64,000 nt of DNA from positions 410,798-474,797 of the forward strand of contig CAVUBL010000010.1 of the NCBI GenBank assembly GCA_963739795.1. The letters are read 5' to 3'. A program made the position numbers and the translations under genes. The notes under the pieces are model-generated. The model was not told where the DNA came from, ran no database searches, and saw nothing but the letters and a program-made list of their open reading frames with translations. The DNA is from an uncultured Acidobacteriota bacterium. GTDB lineage: Bacteria; Acidobacteriota; Thermoanaerobaculia; Multivoradales; DATKCC01. Shown piece after piece: positions 24,408 to 36,634 of the stretch; the first letter of the stretch is position 1; every line of letters starts with the position of its first letter.

Positions 24408-27400
24408 CTACACCTCCAGCCGGTCGTTCGGCCGGGCGACGAGCAGGTAGAGCGCTGGCATCGAGAAGATGCTGATGACCAAGCGCGCCACCAGGCCGGC
24501 GACGATGACCAGCGCGAAGGGGCGCTGCGAGTCCGAGCCGATGCCGGTGGAGAGCGCCGCCGGCAGCAGCCCCAACGCCGCCACCAGGGCCGTCATCATG
24601 ATCGGTCGTAGCCGGACCAGCGCCGCCTCGTGGGTCGCCGTCGCGATGTCCACCCCTCCGCGCCGCAGCTCGTTGGCGTACGAGATGTAGACCACGGCGG
24701 TCTGAACGGAGACCCCGAAGAGCACCAGGAAGCCGATGCCCGACGAGACCGAGAACGGCGTCCCGGTCGCCCACAAGGCGACCAGGCCTCCGACCGGGGC
24801 CGAGAGCAGCACTCCGACGACCGTGATCAGTGGGAACTTGAAGTTGCTGTAGAGGGCGAAGAGCAGCAGGAAGATCACGAACAGGGTCAGCGGCAGGATG
24901 ATCCTCATCTGCCGCCGCGAGGCCGTGTACTCCTTGTACTCGCCACCCCAGTCGATCCGGTAACCGGTCGGGATCTTCACCTTCCCGCTCACCTGGCGCT
25001 GTGCGTCCTCGACCGCGGAGGCCAAGTCCCGGCCTTCGACCGAAAACTGAACGCCGATATAGCGCTGGTCGTTCTGCCGGTAGATGAACGAGGCGCCGTT
25101 CTCGATGCTGATCTTGGCGAGCTCCTTGAGCGGCACCTGCTGGCCGCCCGGCGTGGCGACCAGGATGTTGCCGATCGTCTGCGGGTTGCTGCGGAACTGG
25201 GGCTCCAGGCGAACCACCAGGTCGAAGAGCTTCTCGCCCTCGACCACCTCGGTCGCCGCATCGCCTCCCACCGCGGCTTCGATCAGGTCGTTGATGTCTG
25301 CGACGTTCACCCCGTAGCGGGCGATGGCGGCGCGATCGACCTCGATCGCCAGGCTCGGCTGGCCGAGCTCCTGGACCAGGGTCACGTGGTCGATGCCGCG
25401 CACCCCCTCGAGGACGCGCTTGATCTGCTTGCCCTTGTCCTCGAGGACGTGGAGGTCACTGCCGAAGACCTTGACCGCCAGCGCGCTCTTCAGGCCGGTC
25501 TCCGCCTCGTCCACCGCATCTTCGGCCGGCTGGGTGTAATTGAAGATGATGCCGGGGAAGGACTCCAGCTTCTGGTCGATGGCGGCGATGAGCTCGGGCT
25601 TCGTGCGGTACTTGCCGTGCCACTGGCTGTACGGCTTCAGGCCGACGAAGAACTCGGCGTTGAAGAAACCCGTGGGGTCGGTGCCGTCGTCCGGCCGCCC
25701 GTGCTCGGAGGCGACCACGGTGACCGGCCCGAAGGAGCGCAGAACCTTGCGGATCTCCGGCACGATCTTGCGCGACTCGTCGAAGGAGATGGTGTACGGC
25801 ATGGTGGCCCGCACCCACAGCGCCCCTTCGTCCAGCTTGGGCATGAACTCCGCCCCGATGTGGGGGATCAGGAGCATCGACAGGCCCAAGAGCGCGGCCG
25901 AAACGAAGGTCGTCGTCCAGGGGTGGCGGAGACTCGCGTCGAGACCGCGGCCATAGACCCTCTTGGTCCACTCGAACGCCACGTTGCGCCGCTCCTTGAC
26001 GCCCCGCCTCATCGCCCAGGAGCAGAGCACCGGGAGGAGAGCCAAGGTGACGATCAGGGAGCCCACCAGGGCGAAGATCATGGTGTCGGCCATCGGCTTG
26101 AACAGCTTGCCCGACGGGCCGGAGAGGACATAGATCGGCAGGAAGCCGGCGATCATCACCACCACCGAGTAGAAGATCGGGCGGTCGACCTCCGCCGCGG
26201 CGCGGACGATGAGCTGATGGATCTTGATCGGTTGCTCGTGGTTCTCCGCCACCTGCCGGAAGATGTTCTCCACCATGAAGACGGCGCCGTCCACGAGGAT
26301 GCCGAAGTCCACGGCGCCGATCGAGAGCAGATTGGCTGGGATCCCCTTGAGGTCCAGGCAGACGAAGGCGAAGAGCAGGGCGAGAGGGATGGTGACCGCG
26401 ACGATCAGACCGGAGCGCCAGTCGTAGAGAAAGAAGATCAGCGCCACGACGACCAGGACCATGCCGCGCATCAGGTTGTCCTCGACCGTGCGGGTGGTGA
26501 GGTCGATGAGATCCGTGCGGTCGTAGAAGGGATGGACCTTGACGTCCTTGGGCAGGATGTGCGCGTTGAGCTCGCGGGTCTTGGCTTCGACCCGCTTGAG
26601 CACGGTCTGCGCCTGCTCGCCCTTGCGCAGCAGGATCACGCCCTCGACGGCGTCGCTCTTCTCGTTGAAGCCGAACTGGCCGAGGCGCGGGGCGTGGCCG
26701 ATCACCACCTTCCCCACGTCCTTGACCAGGACCGGCGTGCCGTCGTGGACGGCCAGGACCACCTGGCCGATGTCCTCCGGGGTGTGCACCCGTCCGAGGC
26801 CGCGCACGTAGTAGAACTGCCCGCCCTCCGAGTAGAAGCCGCCGCCGGCGTTGCCGTTGTTGGCGGCCAGCGCCGAGACCACGTCGGCGACCGAGAGCCC
26901 CGCGCCGGCGATCTTGGACGGGTCGAGGAGCACCTGGTACTGCATCGTCTCCCCGCCCAGCCCGGAGTCGTCGGCGACGCCGGGCACCGCCTTGAACTGG
27001 CGCTCGACGATCCAGTCTTCGATCGTCTTGAGCTCCATCGGAGAGCGATCGGGGCTCTCGAGGACGTAGCGGTAGATCAGCCCCGACGGCGAAAAGAGCG
27101 GTGCCACCGAGGGCGAGACCCCGTCCGGAAGCTCGACGTCGGGCAGACGCTCGAAGACGAGCTGGCGGTCGAAGTAGTTGTCGGTCTTGTCGCCGAAGGT
27201 GAGGCGCACGTCCGAGAGGCCGTAGAGCGAGATCGACCGCTGCACCACCATCCCCGGCGTGCCGTTCATCTCGACTTCCGTGGGGACGGTGATCAGCCGC
27301 TCCACCTCCTCGGCGGCGTGCCCCGGCCATTGGGTGACGATCTCGACCAGGGGCGGAGAGAGATCTGGATAGGCGTCGACCGGCAGGCGGCGGAAGGAGT

Positions 27401-27533
27401 AGACACCGGCTCCGACCAGAAGCAGAGCGAAGAGAACCATCAAGAAGCGCTGGTTGAGCGCCAGCTTGACGATCCGGTTGATGATCGACGGCGTCGCGTC
27501 GACGGAGGGCTGCGGAGTCTCGGGGGTGCTCAT
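24408..27533 (-). CDS. CusA/CzcA-family heavy-metal efflux RND transporter
   Basis: LPVDAYPDLS, DFGILVDGAVFMVEN, AEFMPKLDEG and RLRPIMMTALVA motifs. Confidence 0.93.
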   Translation of the reverse strand: MSTPETPQPSVDATPSIINRIVKLALNQRFLMVLFALLLVGAGVYSFRRLPVDAYPDLSPPLVEIVTQWPGHAAEEVERLITVPTEVEMNGTPGMVVQRSISLYGLSDVRLTFGDKTDNYFDRQLVFERLPDVELPDGVSPSVAPLFSPSGLIYRYVLESPDRSPMELKTIEDWIVERQFKAVPGVADDSGLGGETMQYQVLLDPSKIAGAGLSVADVVSALAANNGNAGGGFYSEGGQFYYVRGLGRVHTPEDIGQVVLAVHDGTPVLVKDVGKVVIGHAPRLGQFGFNEKSDAVEGVILLRKGEQAQTVLKRVEAKTRELNAHILPKDVKVHPFYDRTDLIDLTTRTVEDNLMRGMVLVVVALIFFLYDWRSGLIVAVTIPLALLFAFVCLDLKGIPANLLSIGAVDFGILVDGAVFMVENIFRQVAENHEQPIKIHQLIVRAAAEVDRPIFYSVVVMIAGFLPIYVLSGPSGKLFKPMADTMIFALVGSLIVTLALLPVLCSWAMRRGVKERRNVAFEWTKRVYGRGLDASLRHPWTTTFVSAALLGLSMLLIPHIGAEFMPKLDEGALWVRATMPYTISFDESRKIVPEIRKVLRSFGPVTVVASEHGRPDDGTDPTGFFNAEFFVGLKPYSQWHGKYRTKPELIAAIDQKLESFPGIIFNYTQPAEDAVDEAETGLKSALAVKVFGSDLHVLEDKGKQIKRVLEGVRGIDHVTLVQELGQPSLAIEVDRAAIARYGVNVADINDLIEAAVGGDAATEVVEGEKLFDLVVRLEPQFRSNPQTIGNILVATPGGQQVPLKELAKISIENGASFIYRQNDQRYIGVQFSVEGRDLASAVEDAQRQVSGKVKIPTGYRIDWGGEYKEYTASRRQMRIILPLTLFVIFLLLFALYSNFKFPLITVVGVLLSAPVGGLVALWATGTPFSVSSGIGFLVLFGVSVQTAVVYISYANELRRGGVDIATATHEAALVRLRPIMMTALVAALGLLPAALSTGIGSDSQRPFALVIVAGLVARLVISIFSMPALYLLVARPNDRLEV

Positions 27534-28705
27534 TGATTCTCCGCGAACTTGAGGAAGAGTCCACCCTCGACGACGACGCGGTCGTCGGGCGAGAGCCCGG
27601 AGGTCACCTCGAAGAGATCGCCGATCCGCGAGCCGAGGTCGACCCGGCGGCGGAAGTAGTTACCGTCCTTGCCGGCGAGATAGACGAACGGCAGGTTCTC
27701 GTCATCGCGCAGCACGGCCGAGGTCGGCGCCAGAAGCCCCTGATGCCCGGTGCTCGAGTGGATCCGCACCTTGACGTAGAGGTCCTTCTTCAGGGCGCCT
27801 CCCGGGTTGTCGGCCAAGATGCGAACCGCCACGGCCCGGGTCTGGGGATCGACGACGGCGGCGATGTAGGAGACCTTGCCGGGGACCGGGTCGGGCGCGG
27901 TCTCGGTGAGGACCTCGGCCGGATCTCCCACCTTGACGTCGGCCAGGTCGCGGGTGAAGACGTTGGCCATCACCCACATCTTGGAGAGGTCGGCGACGGT
28001 GAAGCAGGTCGTTGCGCCGGCGCCGAGGAGCTCGCCCGGCGTGATCATCCGCTCGACCACCGTGCCGCGGATCGGAGACCGCAGCAGCGCATAGCTCCGG
28101 TCGATCGCCTTGCCGGCCACCAGGTCGTCGAGGGTCTTCTGATCGACCCCCAGCGAGCGCAACGCTTCGAGCGCGGCGTCGCGATCCGCCTCGGCGGAGG
28201 TGGCGTCGGTCTGGGCCTGCTCGAGCTCGCGGCGGGAGAGCCCACCGTCGGCGAACAGCTTGCTGTCCAGATCGGCGATGCGCCGGGCGTTGGCGGCGTC
28301 GGCGGCGCCCTTGCGGTAGGCGCTGATGTCGGCGGCGAAGTCGGGCGAGGCCACCTCGGCCAGAGGCTGGCCGCGCTTCACCTGGGCGCCGACGTCCACC
28401 AGCAGCCGGGCCACCGGTCCCGAGATCGGGGAGATGACCTGGGTCGACTGATCGGCGTCGAAGGCCACCGTGCCGGTGGTCTCCACCGTGCGCCGGTAGT
28501 CGGTGGGCTCGAGGGTCACCGTGTGGATGCGAGCCTGCTGGGCAGGCGTGATGGTGATGCCCTGGGGGGTCGGGTCGGCGGCACTGGCGACCGGCGCGGC
28601 GGCCGGGTCGGAGGCCGGATCGGAGGCGTCGTGGCAGGCTCCGAGGAGCGCCACGGCGGGCAGCAGGAAGAGCACGGGGAGGAACTTCGAAGGTTTCGTT
28701 CTCAT
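27530..28705 (-). CDS. RND membrane-fusion (periplasmic adaptor) protein
   Basis: Lipobox LLGAC; ISGPVARL..VKRGQPL and LRSPIRGTV lipoyl halves. Confidence 0.9.
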   Translation of the reverse strand: MRTKPSKFLPVLFLLPAVALLGACHDASDPASDPAAAPVASAADPTPQGITITPAQQARIHTVTLEPTDYRRTVETTGTVAFDADQSTQVISPISGPVARLLVDVGAQVKRGQPLAEVASPDFAADISAYRKGAADAANARRIADLDSKLFADGGLSRRELEQAQTDATSAEADRDAALEALRSLGVDQKTLDDLVAGKAIDRSYALLRSPIRGTVVERMITPGELLGAGATTCFTVADLSKMWVMANVFTRDLADVKVGDPAEVLTETAPDPVPGKVSYIAAVVDPQTRAVAVRILADNPGGALKKDLYVKVRIHSSTGHQGLLAPTSAVLRDDENLPFVYLAGKDGNYFRRRVDLGSRIGDLFEVTSGLSPDDRVVVEGGLFLKFAENQ

Positions 28706-28715
28706 CGTCGGAGTC

Positions 28716-30005
28716 TCAGGAGTTGGCGGCGGGCAGCCTGGTGCCGATGGCGCGTTCGAGATCGGCGCGCGAGTCGTTGGCCGCGCCCAGGGCGTCGGCG
28801 AGCTCGCTTTCCGCGGCGAGCAGCGTGCGCTTGGAGTCGAGAAGATCGAGGGCGGAGAGCCCCCCGAGGCTGTAGCTCTTGCTGGCGATGTCGTAGGCGC
28901 GTTGGGCCTCGGGGAGAAGCTGGTCTCGGAGATAGATCGCCTGGCGGCGGGCGGTGTCGGCGGCCTGGAAGGCGCTCCGTACCTCGAGGGCGACTTGCGC
29001 TTCGAGGTCGCGGGAGGAGGCCGAGAGCTCCTCCTCGTAGTGCTCGGCCTCGGCGACCTGCCCCTTTTCGTGCTGCCAGAAGAAGAGCGGGAAGCTGATG
29101 CCCGCCACCGTGCTGAAGGTCGAGGTGTCCCCTCGGTAGTTGTTGCGCTCCAGGGTGACGTCGAAGTCCGGCAGCCAGTAGGACCGGGCGAGCTTGGTGG
29201 AGGTGTGCGCCGCCTTGCGCTGCGCCGCCAGGCTCGCCAGGTCCGGACGGTTCGCCGCGGCGAGCTTGACCAGCGTGTCCAGGGGTGGCAGCGGGGGCGG
29301 CACGGACAAGGGGTCGCTGAGCGCCAGGGGCGAGGCGAGTGGCCGCCCGACCAACCGGTTGAGGGTCGAGCGCGAAGTCGCGAGCTGCCGCTCCGTGGCG
29401 ATCAGGGCGTTTTCCGCCTGGGCCACGTCCACCTTGGCCTTGATCACGTCGATCTCGGGCACCGTGCCGGCTTCGAAACGGGCCTGGGTCTTGGCGAGGA
29501 AGTCGTCGGCCAGGGCCTTGGCCTGCTCGAGGTCGCGCAGGTGCCGCCGGGCCACGAGGAGCGCGTCGTAGGCGGTGACGGTGTCGGCGGCGAGCTGCTG
29601 GCGCGCCTGGGTGTAGTCGAGCTCGGCCGACTTGTACAGGTCGGTCGCCGCCTTGCCGCCGAGGCGGATCTTGGTGGGAAAGGGGACGGCGAGGTCGAAG
29701 GCGTAGATGCGCGCCGGCGAGCTGCCGGGCGAGAGCAGGCCGGTCTCGTCGTCGTACTCGGCCGACAGGGCCGGATCGGGCAGGGCGCGGGCCTCGACGA
29801 TCCGGGCTCGCGCCTGCTCCACTTGCTGGCGGGCGGCGGCGAGGCCCGGGTTGTGCGCCCAGGCCTCGCGGACGGCCTGCTCGCGGCTGAGTCCGGGCGG
29901 CGTCGCTTTCGGCGGCGCGGCCGGCGGAGCCGCCGAAGCGCGGGCAGCCGGCAGACAGGCTATGGTGATCGCTACCGCCAACGAGGCGGCACGAAGAGGT
30001 TTCAT
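28716..30005 (-). CDS. TolC/CzcC-family outer-membrane efflux protein
   Basis: Signal peptide, OEP helical repeats, C-B-A operon position. Confidence 0.88.
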   Translation of the reverse strand: MKPLRAASLAVAITIACLPAARASAAPPAAPPKATPPGLSREQAVREAWAHNPGLAAARQQVEQARARIVEARALPDPALSAEYDDETGLLSPGSSPARIYAFDLAVPFPTKIRLGGKAATDLYKSAELDYTQARQQLAADTVTAYDALLVARRHLRDLEQAKALADDFLAKTQARFEAGTVPEIDVIKAKVDVAQAENALIATERQLATSRSTLNRLVGRPLASPLALSDPLSVPPPLPPLDTLVKLAAANRPDLASLAAQRKAAHTSTKLARSYWLPDFDVTLERNNYRGDTSTFSTVAGISFPLFFWQHEKGQVAEAEHYEEELSASSRDLEAQVALEVRSAFQAADTARRQAIYLRDQLLPEAQRAYDIASKSYSLGGLSALDLLDSKRTLLAAESELADALGAANDSRADLERAIGTRLPAANS

Positions 30006-30073
30006 GAACTCCCTCCTTCGGGGCGTTCGAGGCCCCGAGCCAAGCGTTGATCTGTGAAGTCGCTAGGTGCCGC

Positions 30074-30439
30074 CTACGCGGCAGGAGGTGCGCGCCCGTC
30101 GAAGGGGCGCGGGAGGCTGACGTGCGGGGGCCGAGCCGGGCGGCTCACGGTCCGCGAGGAGACCGCGGGAAGGCCAACGCCGGCGAGGGGACTGGTGCCC
30201 ACAAGGGCCATGCCCAGGAGCAGGCAGGCGGGGCAATCGAAGGGGCTGTGCGAGCCCAGGAGCTGCCCGCTGGCCACGGGATGGCCGGGCGAGACGCTAT
30301 GGGCGACGGCCGCCGCGGCGAACAGGTCGCCGAGCTCGTTGCTGTCGTGGTGGAACTGCGGCAGGGGCGCCAGGGTCTCGACGGAGACGAACAGGGCGAG
30401 GAGCGCCAGGCCGGTGAGGGTGCGTTTCCAGCTCCGCAT
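30074..30439 (-). CDS. DUF2946/CzcI/CruR-like leader protein (121 aa)
   Basis: N-terminal hydrophobic helix, His-rich segment, CPAC, C-terminal RAPP; immediately upstream of the efflux operon. Confidence 0.7.
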   Translation of the reverse strand: MRSWKRTLTGLALLALFVSVETLAPLPQFHHDSNELGDLFAAAAVAHSVSPGHPVASGQLLGSHSPFDCPACLLLGMALVGTSPLAGVGLPAVSSRTVSRPARPPHVSLPRPFDGRAPPAA

Positions 30440-30607
30440 CGGTTCAGGACCGTACCACACTCGCGGGAGGACAGAGGGGTGCGATTCTCCGCTCTATCGT
30501 GAGAGCCCCGGGGCTCGCCCTTTCCCTTTGGGCGGTCGTGTTAGGTCCCGGCGACGTGGCGATCGAGCTGTTCGAGTCTGGGACGCTTGTCTCCGCGCCT
30601 CCGGCCA

Positions 30608-31177
30608 TCACACGAGCTCGGCCGGAGTCCAAGGCGGCGGCTGGTCGATACCGACGAGACGGCCTCCGTGGTAGCGGGCGATTCTTCGGAACGGGGCCGC
30701 GGCATGGCTGTTGTCCAGGAGCTCGGCTTCGTCCACGACGCCGAGGGCTTGGCGGACGAGTCGCCAGAGGCGACGGAAGCGGCTGCGGATCTTCTCCTCG
30801 GGCACATCGTGGCCTCCGAGCTCACACCGCAGCTCCACCCGGGCCACCGCGAGGTCTTCCGGGATCAGGAGAACGTGGAGGGAGACGAGGTAGCCCGCGG
30901 ACTTCGCTTCACGAATCAGGTCGAGCTTCGAAGGGTGGGAGAAGACCGTCTCGGCGACGAAGGAGCGGCGTTCCAGGATCAGCTCATGGCGCCGCGTGGC
31001 TGCCAGCTCCGCGGCGTCGTAAGCGTGCCGGGCCGGGTCGGTCGGCCAACGCTCGCGTGCGATCTGGTCCGCGTTCACGAAGGGCAGCCGTGTCGCCGGG
31101 CCGAGAACGCGTTCGTAGAAGGTCGTCTTGCCGGCGCCGTTGGGCCCTGCCACGAGATGCAGAACCGGCGTGGGCAC
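30608..31177 (-). CDS. Zeta-toxin/AAA_33-family P-loop kinase toxin
   Basis: GPNGAGKTT, NADQIA, ETVFSH and GGHDVP motifs. Confidence 0.8.
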   Translation of the reverse strand: MPTPVLHLVAGPNGAGKTTFYERVLGPATRLPFVNADQIARERWPTDPARHAYDAAELAATRRHELILERRSFVAETVFSHPSKLDLIREAKSAGYLVSLHVLLIPEDLAVARVELRCELGGHDVPEEKIRSRFRRLWRLVRQALGVVDEAELLDNSHAAAPFRRIARYHGGRLVGIDQPPPWTPAELV

Positions 31178-31178
31178 G

Positions 31179-31556
31179 TCAGTCTTCGTGCTCGCGGTCG
31201 GAGGGCTTCGGCCCGCGTCGCGTCAAGTGCCCCTGGTCGTCCAGCTCGACATAAGGCCGTCCCTCGGCCTGGAACTCGCGGTCCAGGCGGAGCGCGTCCC
31301 TCAGGGCAGTCATCCGCTCGCTCCAAGACGCCCTGACGATGGCCTGCTCTTCCGTGTCGAGCGCGTCGTATTCCTTGGTCCCGCGGAGTACCTCGGCCAC
31401 CGTCTCGATGGAAACGTCGGGGCTCGCTTCCAGCTCTCGCCCGATGCGTGCCCAGTGGCTGAGCTGCTGTGCGGTGCTCCGGCTCATCACGGAGGCGGCT
31501 TGCGCGGCCGTCGCGTAGAGCTCTTCGTCGATTCGTACAGGGGTGCTCTTCTTCAC
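31179..31556 (-). CDS. ParD-like (RHH) antitoxin
   Basis: VRIDEELY..A...SRS..QQLSHWARIGR signature; directly upstream of the toxin. Confidence 0.75.
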   Translation of the reverse strand: MKKSTPVRIDEELYATAAQAASVMSRSTAQQLSHWARIGRELEASPDVSIETVAEVLRGTKEYDALDTEEQAIVRASWSERMTALRDALRLDREFQAEGRPYVELDDQGHLTRRGPKPSDREHED

Positions 31557-31584
31557 GCCAAGATCCTCGTGCGACAGACGGATC

Positions 31585-31599
31585 GTAGCAGATTGCTAC
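31585..31599. promoter_or_regulatory. Palindromic operator upstream of the ParD-like/Zeta module
   Basis: GTAGCA-gat-TGCTAC. Confidence 0.55.
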
Positions 31600-31664
31600 A
31601 CCATCATCATGAACTGGAGCATCCGGCGCGAGACTCGGAGCTGCCGGGCGGCTTCGCAATCCCC

Positions 31665-32891
31665 TCAGGCGGCAGCCTGGACGATTCGAACCCGACTATT
31701 GCTCTGCCAGCAGCTCACGTTCGACTCGGTGCAGACCGGCCTCTCTTCCCCGTAGGAGAGGGTTTTAAGTCGGCTGCTGCTGATGCCCAGGGCAACCAAG
31801 GCAGCCTTCACGGCATCCGCTCGCGCCTGACCCAGTATGAGATTTTCTTCGGCGGTTCCGCACTCCGCGGTATGGCCCTCGAGGAAATAGAGAGAGGTTG
31901 GAACGGACGCCATTCCCGCGGCGATGACTGCCAACTCCTCCGGGTTGATCTCGACTCCGGTGTTGACGCCGCCGACCGTCTTGTTCCCAAAGTACAACGG
32001 CCACGTGGGATACGGGAATACAACCATGTCCGCGGGCACGAACGACGTGATCGGAGCGTCCTTCGGCGCGAGATTCAGGCAGGTCATGGCGTCGAGGCGC
32101 AGGAAGAGCTGGCTGCCTTCCACCCTGGCGAAGCTGGCGAAGATGTCCGCGCCGCTCGCGTCGTCTTGTGGATCCGTGCCGAGCTGGCTCATCGGATTCC
32201 AGTCCGATGGATCGCCGTCGAGCTGGATCGCGGCCCACGCCACCCCGCTCGCAACGGTCACCAGGAGCGCGGCGGAGAGCAGGGCCGGGACGCTGTTGCG
32301 GTGCGCGCGCAGAGTGCGAACCGCGGTGAAGGCCAGCAACAGGGCCAGCAGCCCGAGGCCCCACTCGCCGAGGGTCGGAACCTCCACGATGGAACGCAGG
32401 TCGAGCAGCATCGGCGCCCCGTCGCCGGCGCCGTTGTCGGTGAGCATCGCCTCGTCGCTGCCGGTATGGTTCACGCACGCAGACGGATCTTCGGCCGGGC
32501 AGGTGAGGAATGCGATGCGGCTCGACGCGCCGTGCGGCGCGGTCGCCAGCGGAAAGTGGGTTTCGAGGACGTTGGAGGCGCCGGTGCCGAGGCGCACGCC
32601 GAGCGGCCAGGTGCCGGAGTCGAGGGACTGGGGCGCTCCATAGGTCCCTCCCGAGCACGTCTCGAAGGTCACCGGTCCCACCCCGGGGGACGCATCGTCG
32701 AGCATCGTCGTGACGACGACCTCGACCCCCGCGAAGGGACCGTCCGAAGAGGGAACCTCGCATCCGGTCGCCGGATCGTTATCGAGGTTCAGGAGCGTCT
32801 GAACCACCGTTTGTGCGGATGCCGGGTTCCCGGCCGGGAAGAGCGCGATCAGTGGTATCGCGAGAGCAAGAAGCGTCGGTCGGAGTCTCAT
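31665..32891 (-). CDS. Exported protein with internal IPTL-CTERM-like motif and C-terminal OmpA/Pal-like domain
   Basis: Signal peptide; VPTLGEWGLGLLALLL; EGHT..CGT.E.N..LG..RA.AV..LSYGEERP. Confidence 0.72.
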   Translation of the reverse strand: MRLRPTLLALAIPLIALFPAGNPASAQTVVQTLLNLDNDPATGCEVPSSDGPFAGVEVVVTTMLDDASPGVGPVTFETCSGGTYGAPQSLDSGTWPLGVRLGTGASNVLETHFPLATAPHGASSRIAFLTCPAEDPSACVNHTGSDEAMLTDNGAGDGAPMLLDLRSIVEVPTLGEWGLGLLALLLAFTAVRTLRAHRNSVPALLSAALLVTVASGVAWAAIQLDGDPSDWNPMSQLGTDPQDDASGADIFASFARVEGSQLFLRLDAMTCLNLAPKDAPITSFVPADMVVFPYPTWPLYFGNKTVGGVNTGVEINPEELAVIAAGMASVPTSLYFLEGHTAECGTAEENLILGQARADAVKAALVALGISSSRLKTLSYGEERPVCTESNVSCWQSNSRVRIVQAAA

Positions 32892-32949
32892 CAGGCAGCG
32901 GTCTCCTCGAAGCGATCCGCGAGAAGGACTCCGGCGGAACGGTAAGAGG

Positions 32950-33290
32950 CGGACCCTATCCCATTCGAGGGTCACGGACAACGCCCCGGCAGGGCGATGC
33001 GAAGGCGCGACGGTTCCAATCGCTCTCGGTCGAAGAGCGGATGGCGTATCTCACCGAGCTCACCGAGCTGGCCCTCCAGAACAACCCCCGCATCGCCGAG
33101 TCCAAGGATGCTCCAGCGGCTCCAGGGCGTGCTCGCGTCCTTACGCTCCCATGACGTCGAATACCTGGTGATCGGCGGAATCGCCTCCGTTCTCCACGGC
33201 GTGCCGCGGGCGACGTTCCATCTCGACATCCTCATCCGGCCGGACATCGAGAACGCTCGGCGACTCCTCCAGGTATTGCACCTCGAGGCG
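32950..33290 (+). pseudogene. Truncated copy of the small-protein/nucleotidyltransferase module
   Basis: ~280 bp near-identical to 46058-46338; NTase (ATG 33108) stops matching after ~57 aa; DLD changed to HLD. Confidence 0.75.
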
Positions 33291-33627
33291 CCTGGCACCT
33301 GCGCCCGGGGCAGGCGGCGCTGCCGGCCGTCGAGGCGAGGCTCTCCCGGAGGATCCGGGGGTGGCGAGCGGCGATCCGTAGCAGGGCGATGGCGGGGCCC
33401 TCGGGATGCCGGCGGCCTTGCTCCCAGTTGCGCAGGGTGTGGACGCTGATCCCGACGGCGCGGGCGAGCTCCGCCTGCGAGAGGCCGATGAAGCGACGGA
33501 GGGCCGCCACGTCGGCGCCGGATTCGAACTGTCCGTTCATCAGGCGCTTTCTCATGCTCGCCGGGAGGCTGCGCGCGAGTTGCTCCGGAGTGAGCTCGGG
33601 GATGTGCTGTCGGGGCGACTCGTCCAT
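33232..33627 (-). CDS. XRE-family HTH protein (orphan HigA/MqsA-like antitoxin)
   Basis: LRRFIGLSQAELARAVGISVHTLRNWEQGRRHPEGPAIALL. Confidence 0.75.
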   Translation of the reverse strand: MDESPRQHIPELTPEQLARSLPASMRKRLMNGQFESGADVAALRRFIGLSQAELARAVGISVHTLRNWEQGRRHPEGPAIALLRIAARHPRILRESLASTAGSAACPGRRCQAPRGAIPGGVAERSRCPAG

Positions 33628-33685
33628 GCTGACGACGGGGCGCGGTCCGGGGCCGATAGCGCACCCTGTGCTAACGTCTCGCTTC

Positions 33686-34051
33686 ATGTCGAAGCAACGG
33701 ATTCGACGGGTAGCCGTTCCGTGCCTGTCCGCGATCCTGCTGCTGGGTGCGATCGACCTCGGCTCGTCGCGCGAGGTGCACGACCCCTACGCCACGGCCG
33801 GCGTGGAGGTCTTTCCGTGCACCTCGGCGCAGCCGGCCCCCTATCGCCACATCGAGTCGACGCACCCCGAGCACCTGCCGCTCTGCCCCTTCTGCCTGCT
33901 GCAGATGCAGAGCGCGGGCGCCCACCTGCCGCCGGCCGCGGGCAGGGTCTCGTCGCCCTCGCGAGAGTTCGAGGTGCGCGAGGTCCCCACTCCTCCCCTC
34001 CTCACCTTCCACCACCCGGCAAGCCTCCGCGGCCCCCCCGCGGCCTTCTGA
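33686..34051 (+). CDS. DUF2946/CruR-like leader protein (121 aa)
   Basis: N-terminal hydrophobic helix, His residues, CPFC, C-terminal RGPP; upstream of a TonB-dependent receptor. Confidence 0.7.
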   Translation: MSKQRIRRVAVPCLSAILLLGAIDLGSSREVHDPYATAGVEVFPCTSAQPAPYRHIESTHPEHLPLCPFCLLQMQSAGAHLPPAAGRVSSPSREFEVREVPTPPLLTFHHPASLRGPPAAF

Positions 34052-34201
34052 GCCCCTTCCAGCCGTCGCCTGAACACCCGGGCACCGCCGCGCGCGGCGC
34101 CTGGTCGATGTCCGTTTAGCCGGACGGTCCGCCGGATTCGGCCCCGTGCGGGATCCGGGCCGCCCGCTTGCGAAGGATTCAAAGGAACTCAGGAGGTACC
34201 C

Positions 34202-36634
34202 ATGTCTCGATATGGAATAGACCGAATCTTCAACCGGCGGGCGCTTCGCGTCGCCCGTCTCGTCTTCTGGCTCTCGCTCGCCCTGCCCGCCGCGGCCCTG
34301 GCCGGCCAGGTGCTGGGCAAGGTCATCGGCCCCGACGGCTCGCCGCTCCCCGGCGTGACCGTCCGTCTCTCCAACCACGTCACCGGCTACGAGCAGCAGG
34401 TCACCACCGGCGCCGACGGCGCCTTCCTGCTCTACAACGTCCCCGACAACCCCTATCACCTGACCGCCGAGCTCTCGGGCTTCTCGCCGGTCCACGAGGA
34501 CGTCTCGGTACGCGGCGCGGTGCCGGTGGAGCGCATGCTCACCCTGGCGCCGAGCTTTTCCGAGAGCGTCTCGGTCGAAGGCGCGAAGGAGCCCGTGGCC
34601 CTCGAGACCGACAGCTCCACCAGCCACGTGGACATCGACCGCTCCCTCATCCGCCGCTTCCCGGCGGCCGCAGCCTCGCGCGCCTTCGAGTCGATCGTGC
34701 TCTCGGCTCCCGGCTTCTCCCAGGACGAGAACGGGCGCTACCACTTTCAGGGCGGTCACTCGCAGCAGCTCCTGGTGGTCGACGGCCAGCCCATCGGCGA
34801 CCAGGTGGGGATCACATTCTCCAACTCTCTCGACCCGGCCATCGTCCAGGACCTCGAGATCCAGACCGGCGGGATCTCGGCCGAGTACGGAGAGAAGGCC
34901 TACGCGGTGCTCAACCTCACGACGCGCTCGGCCCTGGGTCATGACGGCTTCCACGGCGACGCCGGGGTCGGCGGCGGCAGCTTCGGCACCCACCAGGGCT
35001 CTGCGAACCTCGGCTGGGGCGCTGCGCGCCGCGGGGTGTTCGCCAGCGTCGACGGCTCGTCCTCGGACCGCTTCCTCGATCCCGTGTCGTTCGGCAACCT
35101 CCACAACCACGGCGACACTACCCGCGCCTTCGTCCGCTACGACCTGCTCTCGGGGAGCGGCTCGGACTCTCTGAGGTTCACGGCCAACGCCGGCCGTACC
35201 CGCCGCGACGTCACCAACCTGCCGTCCCAGGAGGCGGCGGGTCAGGCCCAGCGGGTCCACTCGGAGGACTGGAACGGCAACCTCGGGTATCAGCACGTCG
35301 CCGGCGACTGGGTCGCCGAGGGCCTCCTCTATGCCCGCGACAACCGCCTGCGCCTCTTCGGCTCACCCGGCGACACGCCGGTGACCGCCGACCAGAACCG
35401 CTCCCTGGCCAACCTGGGCGGGTCGTTCTCGATCTCTCGGCAGATGGGGGTCCACGAGCTCGAGGCCGGTGTCCAGGCCAAGAGGTTTCCCATCGACGAG
35501 CGGTTCGACTTCGGGATCACCGATCCCGGCTTGAACGACCCGGCTTCGGAGGGGTACGACGCCAATCTCGCGCCCTACGACCTCACCCGCGGCGGGCAGC
35601 TCTTCACATTCTCGGGCTCGCGCACGGGCACCTACGGAGCCGCCTTCGTCGAGGACACGATGCGCCTCCGGGCCCTGACCGTGCACGCGGGCGTGCGCTA
35701 CGGGCGCAACCGGCTCTTCGAGACGGAGTCGGAGGTCCAGCCGCGCCTCGGCGTCGCCTACTCCATCGCGCCCACCCACACGGTCCTCCGCGCCTCCTAC
35801 GACCGGATGTTCGTCACCCCGGAGTACGAGAACATCCTGCTCTCCTCCTCGCCCGAGGCCGCGGCCTTGGTGCCGCCGGACATCCAGGCCTCGAACCGCC
35901 TGGGCTTCGGGCAGCTCTACAACGTGTCGGAGAAACAAGACGTGATCAACGTCGGTGTGCAGCAGGGGATCGGCTCCGCCCTCAGAGTCGACGCCTCCTT
36001 CTGGAAGCGGCGGGTCACGAACGCCGCCGACCAGTCGCAGTTCTTCAACACCGGCATCGTCTTCCCCCTCAACTTCAAGGGCGGCGACCTACACGGCTGG
36101 AACCTACGGCTGGACGGTGGTCCGGTCGCCGGAGTGCGCGGCTACCTGTCGCTGGGGCACGTCCGGGCCATCTACGACCCGCCGTTCGTCGGCGGGCTCT
36201 TCCTCGACGCCGAGGCCCTCGACAGCCTTAGCGGCGGCCCGTTCGTCATCGACCACGACCAGAACCTCCAGGAGCAGCTCGGCCTTTACTGGGACGTTCC
36301 CGGAACCGGGTTCTGGCTCGGCCTGACCCAGCGCTACGACTCCGGCCTGGTGACCGACGCCGGGGACCCGGCGGACGTCCTCGCCAGCCCGGACACGGCC
36401 TACGCCGAGCCCTACATCCGGTTCGCCGAGGACCCGCAGCGGATCCGGCCACGCACCGTCTGGAACGCCTCCGCCGGGACGCGCCTGGAGCGCTACCACC
36501 TCCCGTTGGAGCTCGAGGTGGACGTCCTGAACCTGACCAACGAGAAGGGCCTCTACAACTTCCAGTCGGTCTTCGGCGGCACCCACGTCATCCCGCCCCG
36601 GGCGATCTCAGCCCGCCTCCGGGCGACGTTCTAG
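34202..36634 (+). CDS. TonB-dependent receptor with N-terminal carboxypeptidase-regulatory-like domain
   Basis: Signal peptide, plug region (GGISAEYG), beta-barrel pattern, C-terminal Phe (RLRATF). Confidence 0.9.
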   Translation: MSRYGIDRIFNRRALRVARLVFWLSLALPAAALAGQVLGKVIGPDGSPLPGVTVRLSNHVTGYEQQVTTGADGAFLLYNVPDNPYHLTAELSGFSPVHEDVSVRGAVPVERMLTLAPSFSESVSVEGAKEPVALETDSSTSHVDIDRSLIRRFPAAAASRAFESIVLSAPGFSQDENGRYHFQGGHSQQLLVVDGQPIGDQVGITFSNSLDPAIVQDLEIQTGGISAEYGEKAYAVLNLTTRSALGHDGFHGDAGVGGGSFGTHQGSANLGWGAARRGVFASVDGSSSDRFLDPVSFGNLHNHGDTTRAFVRYDLLSGSGSDSLRFTANAGRTRRDVTNLPSQEAAGQAQRVHSEDWNGNLGYQHVAGDWVAEGLLYARDNRLRLFGSPGDTPVTADQNRSLANLGGSFSISRQMGVHELEAGVQAKRFPIDERFDFGITDPGLNDPASEGYDANLAPYDLTRGGQLFTFSGSRTGTYGAAFVEDTMRLRALTVHAGVRYGRNRLFETESEVQPRLGVAYSIAPTHTVLRASYDRMFVTPEYENILLSSSPEAAALVPPDIQASNRLGFGQLYNVSEKQDVINVGVQQGIGSALRVDASFWKRRVTNAADQSQFFNTGIVFPLNFKGGDLHGWNLRLDGGPVAGVRGYLSLGHVRAIYDPPFVGGLFLDAEALDSLSGGPFVIDHDQNLQEQLGLYWDVPGTGFWLGLTQRYDSGLVTDAGDPADVLASPDTAYAEPYIRFAEDPQRIRPRTVWNASAGTRLERYHLPLELEVDVLNLTNEKGLYNFQSVFGGTHVIPPRAISARLRATF

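Follow-up and report, generated by a model that had tools for sequence, protein, structure and literature searches.

A candidate metal-sensing arrest leader of the CruR/CutF type ahead of a heavy-metal efflux operon in an uncultured acidobacterium

A 64,000-nucleotide (nt) stretch of contig CAVUBL010000010.1, from an uncultured Acidobacteriota bacterium, carries a heavy-metal efflux operon that is preceded by a 121-amino-acid (aa) open reading frame (ORF), here called leader 1 (30074-30439, minus strand; coordinates are positions within this whole stretch, hereafter the window). Leader 1 is probably a cis-acting, metal-sensing arrest leader of the CruR/CutF (DUF2946-like) type, in which a ribosome stalled at a C-terminal RAPP motif would unmask the first efflux gene's Shine-Dalgarno (SD) sequence. 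A second, divergent leader of related design (leader 2) lies ahead of a TonB-dependent receptor gene on the plus strand. The literature already describes this kind of element, its association with resistance-nodulation-division (RND) pumps and two opposite logics, and leader 1 is no new kind of switch. What this analysis adds is a ZneA/Czc-like pump as cargo, relatives in which the two leader types stand back to back, a predicted pairing between the arrest codons and the downstream GGAGG, and apparently leaderless starts. The analysis shows the gene and its conservation, the spacing of its motifs, the operon, the type of pump and a predicted RNA fold that is conserved; that the ribosome stalls, which metal is sensed, in which direction expression responds and that the output is SD unmasking are inferences. 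The first-pass annotation of this DNA had proposed a CxxC...RAPP arrest-type leader for the efflux operon, and that core idea is well supported by the anatomy and conservation of leader 1 and by the CruR/CutF precedent.

Anatomy of leader 1

Leader 1 begins with an ATG at 30439 and ends with a TAG at 30076-30074; a GTG at 30460 would give a product of 128 aa, but the database homologues begin with MRSW. Along the ORF lie an anchor (residues 8-24), the motif PLPxFHxxxNE (25-35), CPAC (69-72) and RAPP (116-119). The N-terminal region is basic (R2, K5, R6) and is followed by a hydrophobic stretch at residues 8-24 with a mean Kyte-Doolittle hydropathy of 1.96, which is predicted to be an N-in membrane anchor or export signal. 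AlphaFold2 places a helix at residues 2-23 (predicted local distance difference test, pLDDT, 82-89) and is confident for this N-terminal helix only, with low confidence for leader 1 as a whole (pLDDT 57). The middle segment after the helix reads PLPQFHHDSNELG. The CPAC codons (30224-30235, minus strand) encode a presumed metal-binding motif that directly precedes a second hydrophobic stretch (residues 72-88, mean hydropathy 1.83), and the tail between CPAC and RAPP is basic, proline-rich and disordered. The C terminus reads GRAPPAA and then stop, with Arg-Ala-Pro-Pro two codons before the stop; the four codons of this arrest motif, CGC GCA CCT CCT, occupy 30083-30094 on the minus strand. GC content by codon position is 0.75/0.57/0.90, which is of the coding type, and this pattern, the clusters of homologues and the invariant motifs show that leader 1 is no chance frame.

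An ORF of 121 aa with a helix, CPAC and RAPPAA had been reported ahead of a TolC-MFP-RND operon (MFP, membrane-fusion protein), and the locus is indeed built in this way: the ORF at 30074-30439 is followed, after a spacer of 68 nt, by genes for an outer-membrane efflux protein (OEP), an MFP and an RND pump. The same annotation had given both leaders one layout that included a His-rich segment. The shared layout stands, and "His-rich" is an overstatement, since six of the 121 residues of leader 1 are His and conservation is limited to the F-H pair.

Conservation of leader 1

A word-indexed protein search with leader 1 returned nine proteins at E<=0.01, including the window's own, the other eight being 66-88% identical to it, and an exhaustive HMMER search of 1.84 billion cluster representatives gave only five matches at E<=0.001. 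A profile search raised the set to 13 clusters with identity down to ~31%; the source of one homologue is a Thermoanaerobaculia metagenome-assembled genome. Profile searching with the 13-sequence alignment found no relatives beyond these and no bridge to annotated DUF2946 proteins, and the alignment failed to detect leader 2 in the same genome. Invariant across the 13 sequences are M1, P25, P27, F29, H30, E35, C69-P-A-C72 and R116-A-P-P119. The codon for the RAPP Arg varies among relatives (CGC, AGA or CGT) while the Arg is kept, which indicates that the amino acid is what selection keeps.

The distance between CxxC and this Arg is equally constrained. When 201 genomes of the class were searched, further leader-1-type members were recovered (L049-L053), all with a gap of exactly 43 residues. 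The gap is 43 in every leader-1-type ORF, 44 in leader 2 and 42-45 in all 36 of the related leaders that were examined for spacing, anti-SD sequences and -10-like elements. In every close relative (including loci L004, L005, L006, L011 and L012) the OEP-MFP-RND genes follow ~68 nt past the leader, and a distant relative (L007) also precedes an OEP gene. A distant member of the clade (L008, L009, L018) heads other cargo: a 414-aa protein, an AztC/ZnuA-like binding protein and an AztB-like permease. To judge from these alignments, the motifs, their spacing, the spacer length and the spacer sequence are under purifying selection across several genera.

Family membership and relation to known systems

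Leader 1 aligns end to end with the Pfam DUF2946 model (PF11162, model positions 3-117) at 16.4 bits (E 0.016), against a gathering threshold of 23.7 bits. Leader 2 scores 12.5 bits, and the homologues of leader 1 score 11-15.5 bits or give no match. At default thresholds neither leader matches Pfam or NCBIfam, and DUF2946 appears at relaxed E-values only. Among 301 genomes of the phylum, 30 have a DUF2946 match at E<=0.01 and only 3 of these are over threshold; most of the full-length matches among the 30 are small ORFs with a CxxC, a gap of 43-45 residues and RAPP or RGPP near the stop. The features of DUF2946 proteins that leader 1 keeps are the CXXC, the C-terminal RAPP, the 43-45-residue ruler, the export signal and the first position in an operon of metal genes. 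Because its score lies below 23.7 bits, we regard it as a divergent relative of DUF2946 that carries every architectural feature of the family and falls outside the Pfam definition. The locus also shows that entire acidobacterial branches of this family escape the Pfam model, so that annotation pipelines label such regulators as hypothetical or fail to call them.

CruR (Bp2923) of Bordetella pertussis is a DUF2946 upstream ORF with CXXC at 90-93, RAPP at 139-142 and 45 intervening residues, and its product is poorly structured (PMC9426467). When copper is lacking, ribosomes stall at RAPP and the TonB-dependent transporter encoded downstream is made; copper, sensed through the CXXC, relieves the stall, and Rho then terminates transcription in the 162-nt spacer, the Rho loading region having been mapped in cruR, where a C>G bubble lies (PMC9426467). 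In vitro, the CruR RAPP was shown to arrest ribosomes whose P and A sites hold its two Pro codons, and RAPP and RGPP came out as the strongest arrest cores, resistant to EF-P and enriched at the C termini of small exported proteins ahead of TonB-receptor or metal genes in many phyla (PMC12992588). Leader 1 is likewise a small first-position ORF in a metal operon, with an N-terminal export signal, a CXXC, a RAPP 2-3 residues before the stop, the 43-45-residue ruler and a poorly structured product. It differs from CruR in its efflux pump cargo, which would need the opposite sign of response, in its short structured spacer (68 nt against 162 nt), in the extra PxPxFH..NE motif and hydrophobic stretch after CPAC, and in a metal that is probably divalent, given the zinc-type pump, rather than copper. 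Its host is an acidobacterium, a phylum outside the CruR survey list.

In CutF of Rhodobacter capsulatus, a stall at a C-terminal proline motif lasts longer when copper is bound to the exported nascent chain, and the stall melts a stem-loop that hides the cutO ribosome-binding site (PMC9973294; bioRxiv 10.1101/2025.02.05.636593). Its authors found OEP/RND efflux genes to be the commonest downstream neighbours of CutF-like genes, with TonB-like genes next; most spacers are <100 nt, members are not all copper-specific, and CutF and CruR are described as 'not isofunctional'. Leader 1 resembles CutF as a nascent exported sensor with a spacer of <100 nt and a detoxification cargo, and SD unmasking is predicted for it as well. 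CutF, however, combines CxxxC with a PPP tail open to rescue by EF-P, and leader 1 combines CxxC with RAPP; the anti-SD of CutF lies in the spacer and that of leader 1 is predicted to be the arrest codons themselves; and the CutF cargo is a multicopper oxidase rather than an RND pump.

Two other groups of elements are comparable. ApdA, ApdP and SecM-type peptides have a RAPP core, Pro in the P and A sites, force-sensitive release and control through mRNA structure downstream (PMC7897499, PMC10951233). They monitor Sec or YidC activity and sit before secretion genes, whereas leader 1 sits before OEP, MFP and RND genes, and this metal-gene context together with the CxxC suggests that its ligand is a metal. 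CzcI of Cupriavidus metallidurans is a small exported protein encoded directly before czcCBA and is grouped with CutF-like proteins by the CutF authors. Unlike leader 1 it has no C-terminal proline motif, and we liken the two by description only.

Spacer RNA and transcript start

The 68-nt spacer (30006-30073, minus strand) is predicted to form a three-way junction of helices H1, H2 and H3 (30019-30037), with the SD sequence GGAGG at 30012-30016. In the predicted fold H1 is a GCCGC/GCGGC hairpin that holds the stop codon in its loop. The same minimum-free-energy junction was obtained for all five orthologues, closed by the helix ACCUCC:GGAGGU. In the RNAalifold consensus this closing helix pairs the Ala-Pro-Pro codons with the GGAGGU of the OEP gene, and H3 contains one compensatory change, from G:C to A:U. 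Within the stems, synonymous sites do not vary (every Pro118 codon ends in U, and Ala120 is GCC throughout), and variation falls on loop or unpaired positions, namely the codons for Gly and Arg, the last base of the Ala121 codon and the stop itself (UAG, UGA or UAA). The arrest codons GCA-CCU-CCU are rare ones: in this window GCA encodes 5.5% of all Ala and CCT 12% of all Pro, and the only two CCT codons among the 15 Pro codons of leader 1 are those of RAPP.

Similar pairing is predicted at other loci. In the predicted folds of all leader-1-type loci the SD is 75-99% base-paired, chiefly with the arrest codons, and at 9 of 12 such loci roughly half or more of this pairing (0.48-0.99) goes to the arrest-site window. 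Of the 36 leaders, 23 have an anti-SD pentamer no more than 24 nt from the arrest site, compared with 10.5% of control windows, a count that includes some closely related loci and is raised by Pro-Pro codons, which alone favour the pentamer. A riboswitch was also considered and rejected, as an Rfam scan of 29800-34400, which covers both spacers, returned no family and just a meaningless microRNA match.

Upstream of the leader 1 ATG, the sole stretch conserved among five orthologous loci is TGGTACGGT, which is followed by 9 nt and the ATG. It contains an extended -10-like element, TGG-TACGGT (30449-30457, minus strand), 9 nt upstream of the start codon. Leader 2 has TGCTAACGT (TGC-TAACGT, 33669-33677, plus strand), then 8 nt and the ATG. 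No SD sequence was found before the ATG of either leader, and among the 36 leaders 21 have TAnnnT 5-11 nt ahead of an in-frame start, mostly with an upstream TG. A -10-like element that abuts the ATG where no SD is present makes a leaderless transcript probable, and the leaders are thus probably translated from leaderless mRNAs made from extended -10 promoters. A scan of 29900-30700 for consensus promoters and intrinsic terminators found nothing.

The efflux operon and its probable metal

The first regulated gene (28716-30005, minus strand) encodes a TolC/CzcC-like outer-membrane efflux protein (PF02321 OEP, E 1.6e-59). It is followed on the same strand by a gene for a CzcB-like lipoprotein of the MFP type (27530-28705; HlyD_D23 and RND_mfp, with CzcB/NccB as the best NCBIfam match) and by a gene for a 1041-aa heavy-metal RND pump of the ZneA/CzcA type (24408-27533; TIGR00914, 882 bits, above the cut-off), the start of which overlaps the MFP stop codon. 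The pump scores 766 bits against ZneA (4k0e) and 525 bits against the copper/silver pump CusA. Its fourth transmembrane segment (TM4) reads VDFGILVDGAVFMVEN and carries D-F-G...D-G-A...V-E-N, an Asp-Asp-Glu signature that, as reportedly set out by Nies (2003), marks divalent-cation pumps of the heavy-metal efflux (HME) class. Being closer to ZneA than to CusA and having this TM4 signature, the pump belongs to the Czc/ZneA subtype of HME-RND proteins. Because the pump is ZneA/Czc-like and a distant member of the leader-1 clade heads an AztC/ZnuA-type zinc importer, zinc or a related divalent ion is a more probable ligand than copper.

Pfam scans of the real genes at 14.8-44.2 kb, ~15 kb on each side, detected no two-component, MerR or ArsR regulator, in keeping with the earlier remark that no two-component or MerR regulator is nearby. 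The genes seen in these scans were restriction-modification, toxin-antitoxin, OmpA-like, Xre-type helix-turn-helix (HTH) and diversity-generating retroelement (DGR)-associated genes.

Proposed mechanism and alternatives

We propose that leader 1 is transcribed from the promoter abutting its start codon and that its N-terminal helix inserts in the membrane. The ribosome would stall at RAPP with Pro118 in the P site and Pro119 in the A site, at which point CPAC, 43 residues back, would just have emerged from the exit tunnel, and the hydrophobic stretch after it would lie at a distance where membrane insertion can pull the chain. In such a complex residues 72-88 are 30-46 residues from the peptidyl-transferase centre, which is reportedly, from work of the von Heijne laboratory, the distance at which a hydrophobic segment entering the membrane exerts pull on arrest peptides; it is speculation that metal bound at CPAC could change this pull. 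Metal at CPAC, probably aided by the F-H...N-E motif, would alter the duration of the stall, and since the cargo is an export pump, metal should prolong it, in the manner of CutF. The stalled ribosome would cover ~15 nt downstream of the P site, including the ACCUCC arrest codons and H1, which would otherwise pair with the GGAGG of the OEP gene 72 nt downstream and mask it. A long stall would thereby switch on OEP translation, with the closely packed MFP and RND genes following, and would also shield the C-rich 3' end of the leader from Rho, while a ribosome that terminates and leaves would let the three-way junction re-form.

Several observations weigh against parts of this proposal. Leader 1 lies below the DUF2946 gathering threshold (16.4 against 23.7 bits), and a profile-profile comparison of its clade with acidobacterial DUF2946-like leaders, at 94.7% probability, spans only 12 columns around CxxC. 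When the duplex energy of the arrest site with the SD was ranked against other windows of each leader, the median rank was 0.23, with ranks of <=0.1 at 6 of 21 loci; leader 1 itself ranked at 0.37, so that its arrest site is not exceptional among C-rich segments. Recoding A-P-P to common codons in silico left the SD mostly paired, and longer flanks in the folding brought in competing C-rich partners for the SD. The fold is backed by one compensatory pair only, and the five orthologues are closely related. In view of the ranks and the recoding, we give SD unmasking as a prediction and not as a finding, and put its odds at about even. The PxPxFH..NE motif and the second hydrophobic segment also mean that the mature protein could have a job of its own.

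The stall may instead act on transcription, as it does in CruR (PMC9426467), by masking a Rho site, with the SD pairing being incidental. The modest SD-pairing statistics would fit such an output, and the last 60-100 nt of the leader 1 mRNA have a C/G ratio of 1.6-1.8. The spacer, however, is only 68 nt long and is predicted to be nearly fully structured, which would make it a poor Rho substrate; spacers in the leader-1 clade measure 36-70 nt, against 162 nt in CruR and mostly 62-150 nt for the TonB-receptor leaders here. Over the last 60 nt the C>G bubble is also much stronger in leader 2, with a C/G of 3.5 against 1.8 in leader 1. We therefore consider a Rho-based output of leader 1 unlikely.

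It is also quite unlikely that leader 1 is a stable small membrane protein, a pump accessory or chaperone like CzcI or CusF in which RAPP is a structural or interaction motif. A hairpin that holds a metal site could be built from PxPxFH..NE, CPAC and the two hydrophobic segments, and CzcI, which is small, encoded upstream of czcCBA and related to CutF-like proteins according to the CutF authors, offers a parallel. Such a role would have to account for a RAPP that is invariant and fixed at 43 residues from CxxC in proteins of ~31% identity while the intervening tail is disordered and variable, and for the finding that proteomes strongly avoid RAPP and RGPP other than at the C termini encoded by small upstream ORFs (PMC12992588). 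The same type of leader, moreover, stands ahead of unrelated cargo, both pump and importer, and CruR and CutF are undetectable as mature proteins. Finally, a decayed or neutral relic beside an operon governed at its promoter by a distant regulator (e.g., of the CzcRS type) is highly improbable. In its favour, the check for regulators spans ~30 kb around the locus only and a third leader in the genome looks orphaned beside an IS200-like gene; against it, selection is evident on motifs, spacing, and spacer length and sequence across several genera.

Leader 2 and the pairing of leader types

Leader 2 (ORF 33686-34051, or 33669-34051 with its -10-like element, plus strand) is also 121 aa long and has CPFC at residues 67-70 and RGPP at 115-118, followed by AAF and the stop. 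Behind it (34052-36634, plus strand) lie a 150-nt spacer and the gene for a TonB-dependent receptor with CarboxypepD_reg and Plug domains (34202-36634); receptors of this kind are found downstream at 10 of 16 acidobacterial leader loci tested. Leaders 1 and 2 align weakly (29% identity, pairwise E 0.002). Their start codons are 3,247 bp apart on opposite strands, which agrees with the description of the efflux leader as ~3 kb from the receptor leader and divergent to it.

Between the two leaders lie a ParD/zeta module, an IPTL-CTERM/OmpA-like gene and an Xre-type gene (30608-33687). In relatives both leader types occur directly back to back and divergent (L011/L048 and L053), in tandem (L050) or at one locus (L008), so the pairing is no local accident of this window. 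Because relatives carry the leaders back to back, the pairing of leader types is ancestral, and the intervening genes look like an insertion into a shared control region. The Xre/MqsA-like HTH ORF at the leader 2 end of this block (33232-33687, minus strand), as listed, starts one base from the leader 2 ATG on the opposite strand and would therefore overlap the -10-like element of leader 2; its true start may be internal, or it may be a gene remnant.

Leader 2 resembles CruR in its TonB-dependent receptor cargo, long spacer and C>G bubble, and metal would be expected to relieve its stall in the manner of CruR. Opposite wiring of leaders 1 and 2 is plausible by analogy, since the contrast between CutF, where metal prolongs the stall, and CruR, where metal relieves it, is published. 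Leader-1-type ORFs have the PxPxFH..NE motif and a hydrophobic segment right after CxxC, and this segment is absent from leader 2. Opposite signs, if present, could stem from the segment, from PxPxFH..NE, from the spacer length or from the C>G bubble. A bolder and decidedly tentative version of the proposal, which we think possible but less likely than not, is that the two leaders, as sensors of a single family, form one conserved divergent cassette and read the same divalent metal, zinc, with opposite sign. The inversion in the efflux leader would come from the clade-specific segment after CPAC, with metal blocking an insertion-dependent release, and the CCU-CCN arrest codons would serve as the anti-SD that turns dwell time into pump translation. 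If this were true, the locus would give the first example of an arrest peptide that responds to zinc, together with a natural pair of opposite sign.

From CruR and CutF it is clear that a ribosome can learn of metal levels through the peptide it is making, and the systems that have been dissected are only two, both for copper and both from Proteobacteria. In the CruR/CutF-related literature we found no experimentally tested member that heads an RND operon. The locus described here offers a compact natural pair for uptake and efflux, from one family and in one organism, with a ligand that is probably not copper. The two leaders differ in traits that can be mutated, namely the hydrophobic segment, the spacer length, the C>G bubble and the anti-SD arrest codons.

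Other leaders in this genome and its relatives

The whole genome contains three genuine leaders of this kind. The third (C21:433529-433924, equivalent to L056:5130-5525, minus strand) has HCPAC, a 44-residue gap and RAPPRG followed by the stop, and it scores 19.4 bits against PF11162. Through its GCU-CCU-CCC codons it pairs perfectly over 8 nt (CUCCUCCC) with GGGAGGAG downstream. Behind it stand just a signal-peptide remnant of 45 codons and the gene of an IS200-like transposase, and for this reason it looks orphaned. Another DUF2946 'hit' in the genome (C21:203735-204022, L001) was rejected as an alternative-frame artefact with an internal stop, lying among ordinary genes.

Variants were seen at several related loci. 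In genome G354, a leader-1-type ORF (L053:1297-1755) has RPPP in place of RAPP (CGC CCT CCT CCG), which joins RAPP and CutF-like PPP tails within one clade; it lies 42 nt before a probable OEP gene whose GAGGAGG perfectly complements CCUCCUC. The 414-aa protein encoded between a leader-1-type ORF and the AztC/AztB-like zinc importer genes (L008:607-1848) matches nothing in Pfam or NCBIfam. Its N terminus is proline-rich and it ends in Phe, as outer-membrane barrels typically do, and it may be an outer-membrane channel specific for metal. At L011, which belongs to a metagenome-assembled genome, a homologue of leader 2 (L011:5551-5991, minus strand) is followed by a good SD with a 15-codon ORF and then by an SPFH/Band 7 gene, with no TonB receptor, which seems to have been lost there. 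In another genome of the phylum (G044, locus L036), three CxxC-44-RGPPA leaders share one 3.2-kb locus, one of them preceding a TonB-dependent receptor gene and another standing directly ahead of the next leader.

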